Shown one piece after another: positions 20,777 through 31,205 of a DNA stretch of 64,000 nt (positions within the stretch are counted from its first letter, which is position 1; the number at the start of each line of letters is the position of its first letter). A program made the translations under genes and the position numbers. The DNA is from a plasmid: the sequence record NZ_CP018188.1, one strand, 5' to 3'. The notes beneath the pieces are model-generated. The model saw only the letters and a list, made by a program, of their open reading frames with translations, did no database searches and was not told the origin of the DNA.

Positions 20777-21382
20777 TCAGAAGTCCATAAAATACCCTAA
20801 TTGCTCAGCTTTGTAGATAGCCTCTTGCTTATTATTTACTAGAAGTTTTGAATAGATATGATTCAAATGATTAAATACTGTTCTCCTACTAATTTGTAAC
20901 GTTTCCTCTATATCTTTAACAGAGAGACCTTTCTTACTCAAATTTAAGATTACTATTTCTCGGTCAGTTAAAGCTTCAACATAATCCTGAGATTCAATTT
21001 GTTCAAAATACTTTTTCCCAGAATCCACTTTTTTTAAGATAGAGATGAGTTGTTTAGGGTCTATATTTTTATCTACAAAACCGTATGCCCCTATTGTTTT
21101 TGCTCTCTCTTCATAGATTGACTTAACATATCCTGTCAGCATAACAACTTTCAAGTTAGGAGTAGACTGTATGAGTTCCTCCGCTATCTCCAATCCATTC
21201 TCTTTAGAAATATTTGTTAAATTAATATCAAGTAAAATAATATCGTATTTAGATAAATCAATCGTCACATCGTTAAAATTAGAAGTAATTGTATCTATAA
21301 CATCTACCTCATCATACTGTTGGCATAACAGTTGGATACTCTTTGCAAATAGTTTATGGTCATCAATTAATAAAATCTTCAT
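20777..21382 (-). CDS. salR: NarL/LuxR-family response regulator of the lantibiotic locus (201 aa)
   Basis: REC domain MKILLIDDH...DINL, and C-terminal LuxR HTH LTDREIVILNLSKKGLSVKDIEETLQISRRTVFNHL. Gene order matches salAMTXYKR. Confidence 0.8.
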   Translation of the reverse strand: MKILLIDDHKLFAKSIQLLCQQYDEVDVIDTITSNFNDVTIDLSKYDIILLDINLTNISKENGLEIAEELIQSTPNLKVVMLTGYVKSIYEERAKTIGAYGFVDKNIDPKQLISILKKVDSGKKYFEQIESQDYVEALTDREIVILNLSKKGLSVKDIEETLQISRRTVFNHLNHIYSKLLVNNKQEAIYKAEQLGYFMDF

Positions 21383-22925
21383 AGCATAATTTCCAATCTA
21401 TGGGAAGTAATATTCTGATATTGTATTGTTTATTATCTATTTGTAGCTCCATATCTCCATCAAAAGCTACTAGTGTTTCTTGAAATGATTTCAAACCTCT
21501 GCCATAATTTATAGATTGAACTTTTTCCACCACCTGATTGCTCTCCTCTATGATAATAATATCAGATTGAACCTTTAAAGATAAATGAATATCTTTACTG
21601 ACTCCATATTTTATAGCATTATTAATTAATTCTTTTATAAACCTGTAAACAATATCTCCATATGGAGGTGGGATTATTGTACTACTCGAACAGTTGAAAT
21701 ACAACAACTTATTACTTTTCCTCCTTTTAACAATATCATCAAAAAGAGACTGTATGTTTTCTTTCATTGTTCGATTAGAAGGAACTATTGGGTGATAAGT
21801 ATCAATTTCATCCCTGATACCAGAAACTAGATCATTCAACCCATTAACAATAAAACCATGTGTTATATCACTATTTTCTAAAGAGAGTAAGTTTTTTATC
21901 GCTATGACATTTTGCAAGACATCATCATGCAAATAATTTGAGAACTCCACTCTCATGTTTTCCTCCGATTTCATAAAATAGTTCAGTCTTCTATTTTCAT
22001 AGTCAAAATTTTGCTTAAAGTTTTCTAAATAACAAAAGATACAAGAAATTACCACTAGACAAAAAAACGTGCTTGCATCAACAACTATAAAAAATAGTAA
22101 AAAATCTTTAACTAGTACCTTTATAAGTATTACCCAACAAATGATAAGAAGTAGAAATAAAAGTTCTATACGAGTTTTGTAATCACCTAACCATCTTCGA
22201 GTAACTAGACTAAATTTATCATGTATGACCTTAAAATAGTATATTGTACTCATTATAAGGGGAAACAGATACCACCCCAAATTATTAAAGGCTTGATTAA
22301 CATCTAGCATCTCTCCATAAAATTCACTACCAAGTATTGCTAGCAAAAGCAAAGAAAATAATATCAATGAACGTCTTACAACTGATATTTGTTGCCTAAA
22401 ATACCTATAATATAGCACTATAACCAATAATGGATAAAGGTGTAAAATAGTAAAAACAACTAAGAATAAGAAATTAAATAAAGTTCTATTAACTAAAAGG
22501 CTAATTATAGAAACAAAAATGAACATTAATAAGCCCTTGTCTAGCTTATCTTTAAACTGTTTCTGCCCATATAATATTAAATCAGTAATCTCAACGGTAT
22601 AACAATAGAGCAATATAATTTGCAGACCACTACTAAAAAAGAGAGGAGTTTCCCTTGATAGCACAGATACCAAGTATTGCCAAATTGTTAAGAAAACGAT
22701 AGAAATAATTTTTTTAAAAATCCCATCTTGTTTTTGGCGTAATATTGCTGCCAGCCAAATAAAACCTGTATCAATAAGAGTCATTACAAGAGCTACTTTT
22801 TCAGAGAAAAGAAGAGACAAGTTTTCTCGATTATAGACCAAAATCAAAAAGGCTATTAATTGTTGTAACAAGATTATTGTGATCCCCAAAAATTTACTCT
22901 TTGCTTTTTTTTCTATTCTCATCAT
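21363..22925 (-). CDS. salK: membrane histidine kinase of the lantibiotic locus (520 aa)
   Basis: Multiple N-terminal transmembrane segments. H-box YLHDDVLQNV. C-terminal HATPase region. Overlaps salR by 20 nt. Confidence 0.75.
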   Translation of the reverse strand: MMRIEKKAKSKFLGITIILLQQLIAFLILVYNRENLSLLFSEKVALVMTLIDTGFIWLAAILRQKQDGIFKKIISIVFLTIWQYLVSVLSRETPLFFSSGLQIILLYCYTVEITDLILYGQKQFKDKLDKGLLMFIFVSIISLLVNRTLFNFLFLVVFTILHLYPLLVIVLYYRYFRQQISVVRRSLILFSLLLLAILGSEFYGEMLDVNQAFNNLGWYLFPLIMSTIYYFKVIHDKFSLVTRRWLGDYKTRIELLFLLLIICWVILIKVLVKDFLLFFIVVDASTFFCLVVISCIFCYLENFKQNFDYENRRLNYFMKSEENMRVEFSNYLHDDVLQNVIAIKNLLSLENSDITHGFIVNGLNDLVSGIRDEIDTYHPIVPSNRTMKENIQSLFDDIVKRRKSNKLLYFNCSSSTIIPPPYGDIVYRFIKELINNAIKYGVSKDIHLSLKVQSDIIIIEESNQVVEKVQSINYGRGLKSFQETLVAFDGDMELQIDNKQYNIRILLPIDWKLCYEDFIN

Positions 22926-22964
22926 ATTATTTACTAAATCGTTAAAGTTAAAAAGTTTTTAGAA

Positions 22965-30603: not shown

Positions 30604-30647
30604 AGTCTAAACAGGATTTTTTAGTCTGCTTATCCAGATTGTTTTAA

Positions 30648-30794
30648 TTAACAACAAACGAATATCGAGTTCGGACAGTCATCAGTAATAGTTGCAATCC
30701 AACCTGGACCTCTTTTACCACCAGCTACTTCCATGAGTTCTTTTTCAGAAACTTCTTCGATAGCATTGTTCAAAATATCTTTTGAGTTTTTCAT
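30648..30794 (-). CDS. salA: lantibiotic precursor, salivaricin A-type: MKNSKDILNNAIEEVSEKELMEVAGG-KRGPGWIATITDDCPNSIFVCC (48 aa; not in the ORF track)
   Basis: Hand translation of the minus strand. Double-glycine leader. The core matches the salivaricin A family from memory. RBS AGGGAG upstream. Confidence 0.9.
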   Translation of the reverse strand: MKNSKDILNNAIEEVSEKELMEVAGGKRGPGWIATITDDCPNSIFVCC

Positions 30795-31205
30795 GGCATT
30801 CATTCTCCCTTCTGTTAGTATGTAGTAAATTTTTTCTACGCTCTTATTGTAACCAATACATCTTTATTTTTAGTGAGTAAAAAGTGCAAATATTGTTTTT
30901 TTATTAATATTTTTAAAATGTAAAATATCGCTTTATAAAAAGCAGTCTCTCAAATTTCATTTTTTGTAGCTATTTTACAATCCAATGCCTTCTTATTATA
31001 AAATTAATCCCTTAAATTCAGACTAGGTGACTTAACAAAGAGAAACACTCAAAATAGTGTTTGTCTACTGTCTAAATTTTCTAGCTCTTATTCTTGTTTC
31101 TTGCCGAGAGGTTTGAGTATGAAAAAACAATTTAACTTATACATACTTCTTTTTGAGGTAATTATTATAATATTTTCATCACTACCTTTTTTATAAACTT
31201 TATTC

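Follow-up and report, generated by a model that had tools for sequence, protein, structure and literature searches.

Which variant of salivaricin A does this plasmid encode, and is the locus that encodes it whole? The question concerns a stretch of 64,000 nucleotides from plasmid record NZ_CP018188.1 (here called the window), in which a first-pass annotation, made from the letters alone, had recognized a complete salAMTXYKR lantibiotic locus with a structural peptide that departs from the prototype. We conclude, with a probability of about 0.9, that positions 20651-31362 of the minus strand hold an intact salAMTXYKR operon for biosynthesis, export, immunity and regulation, that it carries the salA4 allele, and that it resides on a Streptococcus salivarius megaplasmid. 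The genes are all there, in the canonical order and intact; the peptide is that of salivaricin A4 (SalA4), and the context is that of a plasmid. Peptide, locus and plasmid context are already known: public databases contain them, and they were described in 2006. The host plasmid is here identified as the carrier of a complete SalA4 locus, which bears on the screening of S. salivarius strains as oral probiotics against Streptococcus pyogenes. The practical value is modest, and two start-codon calls are corrected.

Identity of the peptide and its plasmid

The listing of open reading frames (ORFs) and the raw sequence place seven codirectional genes between 20777 and 30803, in the order salA, salM, salT, salX, salY, salK and salR (Table 1). 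All seven are present with the expected domains, as annotated, and their assignment to the minus strand is a correction to the earlier description.

The structural gene encodes a known peptide. Translation of 30648-30803 gives MNAMKNSKDILNNAIEEVSEKELMEVAGGKRGPGWIATITDDCPNSIFVCC (51 amino acids [aa]), in which the leader terminates in ...ELMEVAGG and the core is KRGPGWIATITDDCPNSIFVCC. The leader is of the double-glycine type, and the 22-residue core contains Thr9, Thr11, Ser17, Cys14, Cys21 and Cys22. The product matches Pfam L_biotic_typeA (E=4e-17, 62 bits against a cutoff of 21.7). Translation from the second in-frame ATG (30794) yields exactly the 48-mer quoted in the first-pass annotation, and by exact-sequence look-up all 48 of its residues are those of GenBank ABB05509.1, "salivaricin A4 precursor [Streptococcus salivarius]." The 51-mer is identical to WP_145517187.1/QGU81650.1 and is found on 185 public contigs (301 index blocks). 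The prototype core that the annotation gave, KRGSGWIATITDDCPNSVFVCC, is indeed that of UniProt P36500 from S. salivarius 20P3, and the departures it proposed, Pro for Ser at position 4 and Ile for Val near the C terminus, are Ser4Pro and Val18Ile relative to P36500. Thus, a non-prototype peptide was rightly called, and its comparison with the described alleles gives it a name, salivaricin A4. That the peptide might instead be a new, undescribed SalA variant is almost certainly wrong. Two positions do differ from the prototype, and a full-text literature search found neither the core sequence nor "SalA4" or "salivaricin A4" in the relevant sense, but the exact match to a named precursor, repeated across public contigs, decides against novelty.

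Variants SalA1 to SalA5 were described by Wescombe et al. 2006, according to reviews (PMC4162386; PMC10086258). Nearest to the window peptide is SalA5 (ABB05510.1, core KRGPGWIATITDDCPNSVFVCC by exact look-up of ABB05510; strains H21f and DPC6993), which has the same leader and, as its sole difference, Val18 in place of Ile18, such that the window peptide is predicted to be 14 Da heavier. The prototype shares the locus type and the leader of the 48-aa form and has Ser4 and Val18 in place of Pro4 and Ile18. SalA2 of strain K12 (ABB05514/ABF61785, exact look-up) has the core KRGTGWFATITDDCPNSVFVCC, with Thr4, Phe7 and Val18, and S. pyogenes SalA1 has the core KKGSGWFATITDDCPNSVFVCC. The positions of the ring residues, Thr9/Thr11/Ser17 and Cys14/Cys21/Cys22, are the same in SalA, SalA1, SalA2 and SalA5. 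Ser4Pro and Val18Ile leave the predicted ring-forming residues unchanged. Val18Ile adjoins Ser17 and would lie within the C-terminal ring. With Ser4Pro, the sole hydroxyl residue outside the predicted rings is lost, so that all three remaining Ser/Thr residues would be ring partners. With three dehydrations, we compute a SalA4 mass of 2341.1 Da (monoisotopic) or 2342.7 Da (average). The observed mass of SalA5 is 2327 Da (PMC9318236), which by our computation is that of the Val18 core minus three waters and supports three dehydrations for the SalA4 core as well.

A broader kinship may exist with the lacticin 481 group of class II (type AII) lantibiotics. Common to both are a single LanM enzyme, a GG leader served by a C39-ABC exporter, and a Thr/Ser-to-Cys spacing compatible with 9-14, 11-21 and 17-22 rings. 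SalA scores 25.8 bits against the NCBIfam lacticin 481 equivalog NF040664, below the cutoff of 46, and has DDC where that family has HEC. A tblastn search with a lacticin 481 precursor sequence gave 39.5% identity (E=2e-5). A second lantibiotic structural gene in the window was also considered, and it was rejected by tblastn and by a screen for Cys-rich small ORFs.

The plasmid belongs with the megaplasmids of S. salivarius. At the DNA level, its best matches are to pSsal-NU10 and to further rep_cluster_199 plasmids of that species. Over its whole length, the 10.6-kb locus matches megaplasmid pSsal-NU10 at 98.2%, and it matches a plasmid labeled Streptococcus equinus FDAARGOS_251 at 99.2%. Exact protein matches run consecutively from QGU81637 to QGU81666 (locus tags BSR19_109xx), are labeled "(plasmid) [Streptococcus salivarius]" and belong to a 188,293-bp record. 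The window is therefore part of this megaplasmid or of one nearly identical to it. Carriage of salivaricin loci on megaplasmids is established (PMC10086258). Genes for PcfK, PcfJ and an approximately 1,838-aa SNF2 helicase/methylase precede salAMTXYKR in 12 fetched contigs and in pSsal-NU10, where the sal genes also agree with those of the window in order and size. These neighbors, at 31363-39597 in the window, are common to contigs with the identical SalA4 precursor and to SalA2-type contigs. Other contigs that carry the salA4 allele agree with the window in species, megaplasmid-type context and gene order.

Intactness of the sal locus

Whether the locus is whole was judged by comparison with 14 fetched loci (numbered with an L below) using tblastn and blastn. 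All seven proteins align from first to last residue with zero gaps to 13 or 14 S. salivarius-type loci, and 10,601 bases are 99.88% identical, without insertions or deletions, to the SalA4-type contigs L001, L003 and L005. SalM is 100% identical to its counterparts in L003, L005 and L006 (gap-free against 14 loci), SalT to those in L001, L003 and L005 (gap-free against 13), SalX to those in several loci, and SalY to those in L001, L003, L005 and L007. SalR is 100% identical in 10 of the 14 compared contigs, SalA2-type ones included. Where the sister loci differ, the changes are mostly synonymous, and thus purifying selection is visible at the locus. Column-by-column comparison leaves one amino acid state private to the window copy, I7K in the short N-terminal tail of SalK, and one private noncoding change, T to A at 30831 in the 5' leader; these two set the copy apart from other salA4 loci.

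Loci of the SalA2 type (K12-type megaplasmids; pSsal-NU10) have the same seven genes, order and upstream neighbors. Against the SalA2-type loci L010 to L014, which include pSsal-NU10, identities are 95.8 to 96.3% for SalM, 96.8 to 97.9% for SalT, 98.8 to 100% for SalX, 99.2 to 99.5% for SalY, 98.8 to 99.4% for SalK and 99 to 100% for SalR, with DNA identity of about 98.2%. Beyond salR, NU10 has the salivaricin 9 locus and the window an IS110 remnant.

A decayed, pseudogenized copy, like most S. pyogenes salA1 loci, might be suggested by surroundings rich in insertion sequences (IS). Such surroundings, mentioned in the first-pass annotation, are real: IS110 fragments lie directly downstream of salR and again at 3856-6022, and an ISL3 transposase lies at 13860-15116. 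Decayed copies exist as well, as in the FDAARGOS_251 plasmid, where salA is frameshifted and salT has an internal deletion. In S. pyogenes, the precursor is 84 to 86% identical and the salAMTXYKR plan is the same, but the loci are chromosomal, and most are deleted in salM or salT and make no peptide (PMC4162386). In the window, however, salM, salT and salK, the frames singled out for checking, and the other four genes are full length and collinear with 13 or 14 loci, with no gap or premature stop and with their motifs in place. Furthermore, the IS110 fragments at 19382-20470 lie beyond the terminator-like hairpin at 20651-20700, and the sal operon is thus untouched by them. Decay is therefore highly improbable. 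Two findings had been named that would together refute the first-pass reading, identity of the peptide to a catalogued variant and pseudogenization of the locus; the former holds and the latter does not.

We note that the decayed FDAARGOS_251 locus (L009, CP020439.2, 10909-15850) lies in a segment otherwise 99% identical. Its salA leader is frameshifted by a 16-nucleotide (nt) tandem duplication, TTTGAACAATGCTATC, its core is that of prototype SalA, and its annotated salT product has 625 aa. Despite the S. equinus label, this plasmid belongs to the megaplasmid type of S. salivarius (rep_cluster_199).

The intact operon is also supported by the motifs of its products. SalM matches Pfam DUF4135 and LANC_like and scores 573 bits against TIGR03897 (LanM). 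It is an exact match to QGU81649.1/WP_156247130.1, "SalM," and its residues 55 to 934 align to LicM2 (PDB 6ST5, E=7e-93) with conservation of DxHxEN, IDxE, SHG, WCHG and CHG. The dehydratase motifs (DLHMEN at residue 251 and IDVET at 267) and the cyclase zinc and acid-base motifs (SHGQSG at 743, WCHG at 805 and LCHG at 850) are intact. SalT has Peptidase_C39, ABC_membrane and ABC_tran domains; in 722-aa numbering, the C39 residues are the Cys of ECGLCC (22), the His of SHFVI (92) and the Asp of VDPA (108), and the ATPase motifs are Walker A (512), the ABC signature (617) and Walker B (637). SalX matches Pfam ABC_tran (E=2e-31), with Walker A at residue 38, the signature at 143 and Walker B at 164. 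SalY matches Pfam FtsX in two stretches and aligns by sequence to PsdB (PDB 9UGG, E=2.5e-29) and to BceB (PDB 7TCG, E=1.9e-24, residues 8 to 627 of 635). Because the match of SalY to the permeases BceB and PsdB covers its full length, SalXY is read as a BceAB-type pump. Bce modules work with an OmpR-type pair, BceRS, whereas the regulator that accompanies SalXY is of the NarL type and the kinase is polytopic. A full-text literature search found no paper joining SalXY with BceAB.

SalR matches Pfam Response_reg and GerE, with an acidic pocket in IDDH at residue 6, the phospho-acceptor Asp in LLDINL at 50, and the GerE helix-turn-helix at residues 137 to 191. SalK is recognized less clearly. It has no Pfam match at E<=0.001, nor even at E=5, and matches an NCBIfam UhpB-type kinase over residues 310 to 508 (E=1.2e-11). 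A hydrophobic domain occupies roughly its first 300 residues and is followed by an H box (LHDDV, 332), an N box (NNAIKY, 435) and a G box (GRGL, 475). The protein, I7K included, is exactly QGU81645.1 and is named SalK in UniRef.

An identical SalA4 structural gene is found on two backgrounds, that of the window and that of L002, L004 and L008. On the latter background, identity to the window proteins is 95.9% for SalM, 96.7% for SalY, 96.5% for SalR and only 91% for SalK, a pattern that suggests recombination inside the operon. SalA4-type loci carry two versions of SalK that share only 91% identity. Perhaps the Pro4/Ile18 peptide and the diversity of SalK define a distinct "pherotype" or target spectrum instead of a neutral variant, and producers of SalA4 would then differ from those of SalA and SalA2 in signaling or killing. 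We regard this as a long shot.

A SalM scan of a contig collection returned one Streptococcus metagenome-assembled genome and a Leuconostoc fragment only, because the collection has one genome per species. The latter, at 9001-9231 of a chromosome contig of Leuconostoc holzapfelii (NZ_JAAXPO010000002.1, L016), comprises 77 residues that are 74% identical to the SalM N terminus and may be either a remnant or part of a related LanM.

Start codons, expression and proposed mechanism

Three of the sal genes offer a choice of start codon. For salA, the Shine-Dalgarno sequence GGGAG (30805-30809) is separated from the first ATG by 1 nt and from the second by 10 nt, and the better spacing at the second makes the 48-residue precursor the more plausible product. 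GenBank ABB05509.1 and UniProt P36500 give 48 residues and RefSeq gives 51. The longest salM ORF begins with TTG at 30603, which we reject as the start. That codon falls inside a perfect 20-bp hairpin (30582-30624), and salM therefore most likely starts at ATG 30564, which has AGGGA in front and gives the 944-aa protein used by RefSeq and most gene callers. The longest salT ORF starts at ATG 27776, which lacks a ribosome-binding site. A GGGAG precedes GTG 27752 by 8 nt, and this start matches the 714-aa RefSeq ortholog in pSsal-NU10, and gene callers give salT products of 714 to 719 aa in other loci. Thus, salT most likely starts at GTG 27752. The 47-nt overlap of salM and salT reported in the first-pass annotation is true of the longest ORFs but is probably not the real overlap, which would be 23 nt from GTG 27752.

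Two hairpins may shape the transcript. A 101-nt segment containing the 30582-30624 hairpin folds at -33.2 kcal/mol (z = -6.1), and none of 200 shuffles folds as well. By analogy with the customary layout of lantibiotic operons, this hairpin is likely a partial terminator or attenuator that would let the salA transcript exceed those of the downstream genes. The fold at 20651-20700, with an 8-bp outer and a 5-bp inner stem followed by a U run, likely marks the end of the operon. Upstream of salA, a candidate -10 element, TACAAT (30846-30851), is accompanied by a poor -35, and we infer a promoter there. A scan for promoter consensus found 57 instances where 61 were expected from shuffles, showing no enrichment, and a search for repeats upstream of salA returned AT-rich palindromes only. 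The 560 nt upstream of salA have a mean column identity of 97% across six loci. All SalA4-type loci examined lack 18 nt (5 + 13) found about 100 to 120 nt upstream of salA in SalA2-type loci, a difference located at about 30905-30925 in the window (columns 454 to 476 of alignment A1). We speculate that these 18 nt may alter promoter or operator geometry.

How the system might work can be proposed by homology with the lacticin 481 group and from the literature on SalA and SalA1, in which the roles of salAMTXYKR are described and autoinduction of salA transcription is known (PMC4162386). SalM would bind the 48-aa prepeptide through its leader, dehydrate core residues Thr9, Thr11 and Ser17 and couple them to Cys14, Cys21 and Cys22, giving two methyllanthionines and one lanthionine in a lacticin 481-type ring pattern. 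SalT would then cleave after the leader Gly-Gly and export the 22-residue peptide, and SalXY, as a BceAB-type ABC pump, would protect the producer. SalK would sense the extracellular peptide and SalR would in turn activate the salA promoter, while the strong hairpin after salA would attenuate read-through into salM and keep the structural transcript in excess.

Several points qualify this reading. Expression and activity of SalA4 at this locus are predicted from its genes, and the ring topology and mode of action are carried over, provisionally, from relatives. The name SalA4 rests on the GenBank title of ABB05509.1, and profile libraries recognize SalK weakly as a kinase. The searches upstream of salA gave no firm position for a promoter or a SalR operator, and no such operator is claimed. 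The private SalK I7K and 30831 T-to-A changes may have functional effects. Finally, S. salivarius NU10 and YU10 carry salA genes with no detectable salivaricin A in the medium tested, and sal loci are often not expressed (PMC4062538). An intact locus can thus be silent, and the one in the window might be genetically intact but silent or poorly expressed, serving mainly immunity and signal sensing and not antagonism; the two private changes would fit such a copy. The upstream region, however, is otherwise identical to that of many SalA4-type loci, and the biosynthetic genes are all intact and under visible purifying selection. We therefore think a silent locus rather unlikely. In work from 2006 by Wescombe and colleagues, SalA2 to SalA5 were reportedly each produced in vitro.

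A candidate second peptide cluster and the plasmid backbone

Table 1. Positions of the sal genes, associated elements and other features of the window
Feature	Position	Strand	Description
salA	30648-30803	minus	structural gene, salivaricin A4 precursor; 51 aa from first ATG, 48 aa from second (30794)
salM	27730-30564	minus	class II (LanM) lanthionine synthetase, 944 aa; longest ORF 27730-30603
salT	25608-27776	minus	C39-peptidase ABC exporter, 722 aa as longest ORF; likely 714 aa from GTG 27752
salX	24874-25611	minus	ATPase subunit of immunity ABC transporter, 245 aa
salY	22965-24872	minus	BceB/PsdB-type FtsX-domain permease, 635 aa; putative self-immunity pump
salK	21363-22925	minus	polytopic membrane histidine kinase, 520 aa
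salR	20777-21382	minus	NarL/LuxR-type response regulator, 201 aa
Upstream intergenic region of salA	30804-31362	minus	between SNF2 helicase gene terminator and salA
salA/salM hairpin	30582-30624	minus	perfect 20 bp, ends in U run
Terminator-like hairpin	20651-20700	minus	directly downstream of salR; followed by UUUUUCUUU
SagB-like nitroreductase		minus	221 aa; weak TIGR03605 match
Orphan protein		minus	288 aa; no family match
ThiF/E1-like adenylyltransferase		minus	329 aa
Two ABC transporters		minus	same cluster
Cys-rich precursor ORF	13545-13664	plus	39 aa, MADEVISLGLDVEEVSLSYLQTQGVVAGSLLSCCGCGDE; core ...GSLLSCCGCGDE; divergently transcribed
IS110 fragments	3856-6022		
ISL3 transposase	13860-15116		intact, 418 aa; adjoins 39-aa precursor gene
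IS110-family transposase	19382-20470		three pseudogene fragments, directly downstream of salR
ParA	45692-46576		plasmid partition gene
Rep3 initiator	47748-49211		plasmid replication gene

The more novel item in the window is not the sal locus. About 7 kb downstream of salR lies an unannotated peptide modification cluster, with minus-strand genes at 7277-13381 and a divergent gene for a small peptide (Table 1), and for a genome scan this cluster, with its YcaO-, ThiF- and SagB-like proteins, is the more useful outcome. Its 288-aa orphan protein has only three close clusters in 5.8 billion sequences, but an exhaustive HMMER search found 25 distant relatives. The best match of the family profile is McbD, the YcaO protein of microcin B17 (E=0.008), with the matching motif S-E-x2-E-R / T-x-G-x-A-H / E-x2-E-R, and 15 of 24 family members have weak Pfam YcaO matches. 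An AlphaFold model built from a 24-sequence alignment (mean predicted confidence [pLDDT] of 90.5, compared to 43 for a 4-sequence version) has archaeal YcaO 6CI7 as its best fold match (probability 1.00, TM 0.54), and 6PE3, also a YcaO, is among the best matches. Several lines of evidence, from profiles and from the predicted fold, thus point to a short, divergent YcaO cyclodehydratase.

The module is conserved in other streptococcal contigs. At 63% identity and with a near-identical peptide, all six of its genes are found again in a chromosomal setting, and the peptide, SagB-like and ThiF proteins are also found in Streptococcus dysgalactiae subsp. equisimilis. The locus of a 30%-identical relative likewise has the YcaO-like, ThiF and two ABC genes, beside a peptide whose sequence ends in LLDCTGCSDEF. 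The cluster is a candidate for the production of a ribosomally synthesized and posttranslationally modified peptide of the thiazole/oxazole type, and it appears to represent a linear thiazol(in)e peptide family that is undescribed. A literature search found no paper with the core motif of the 39-aa peptide, and no description of the cluster was among the papers listed for S. salivarius and YcaO.

Upstream of the sal locus lies megaplasmid backbone. The block of SNF2, PcfJ and PcfK genes is the invariant upstream neighbor of the sal locus in all contigs fetched. It opens a backbone at 31363-50385. In the 1,838-aa protein, the SNF2 helicase is joined by a methylase region that resembles Eco57I. 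Besides this protein, PcfJ and PcfK, the backbone includes a VirB11-like T2SSE ATPase, an LPD1-domain protein, a DUF3854 protein, ParA, the Rep3 initiator and a tyrosine recombinase, together with a 200-aa protein (42028-42630) that is a weak match to RelA_SpoT (E=1.6e-4).

Beyond the backbone, a LytTR response regulator (52774-53508) and a GHKL histidine kinase (53505-54824) are followed by a 613-aa secreted protein, in a region that extends to 56946. Domains of the YSIRK, CHAP, SH3_5 and Bsp-like kinds make up the secreted protein, which is similar to ScrM, a peptidoglycan hydrolase, and carries the GenBank label "bacteriocin (plasmid)" (QGU81666.1). It is possibly a bacteriolysin of the salivaricin MPS type. 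Directly upstream of this 52774-56946 block lies a 140-aa SH3_5/Bsp-like fragment (52128-52550).

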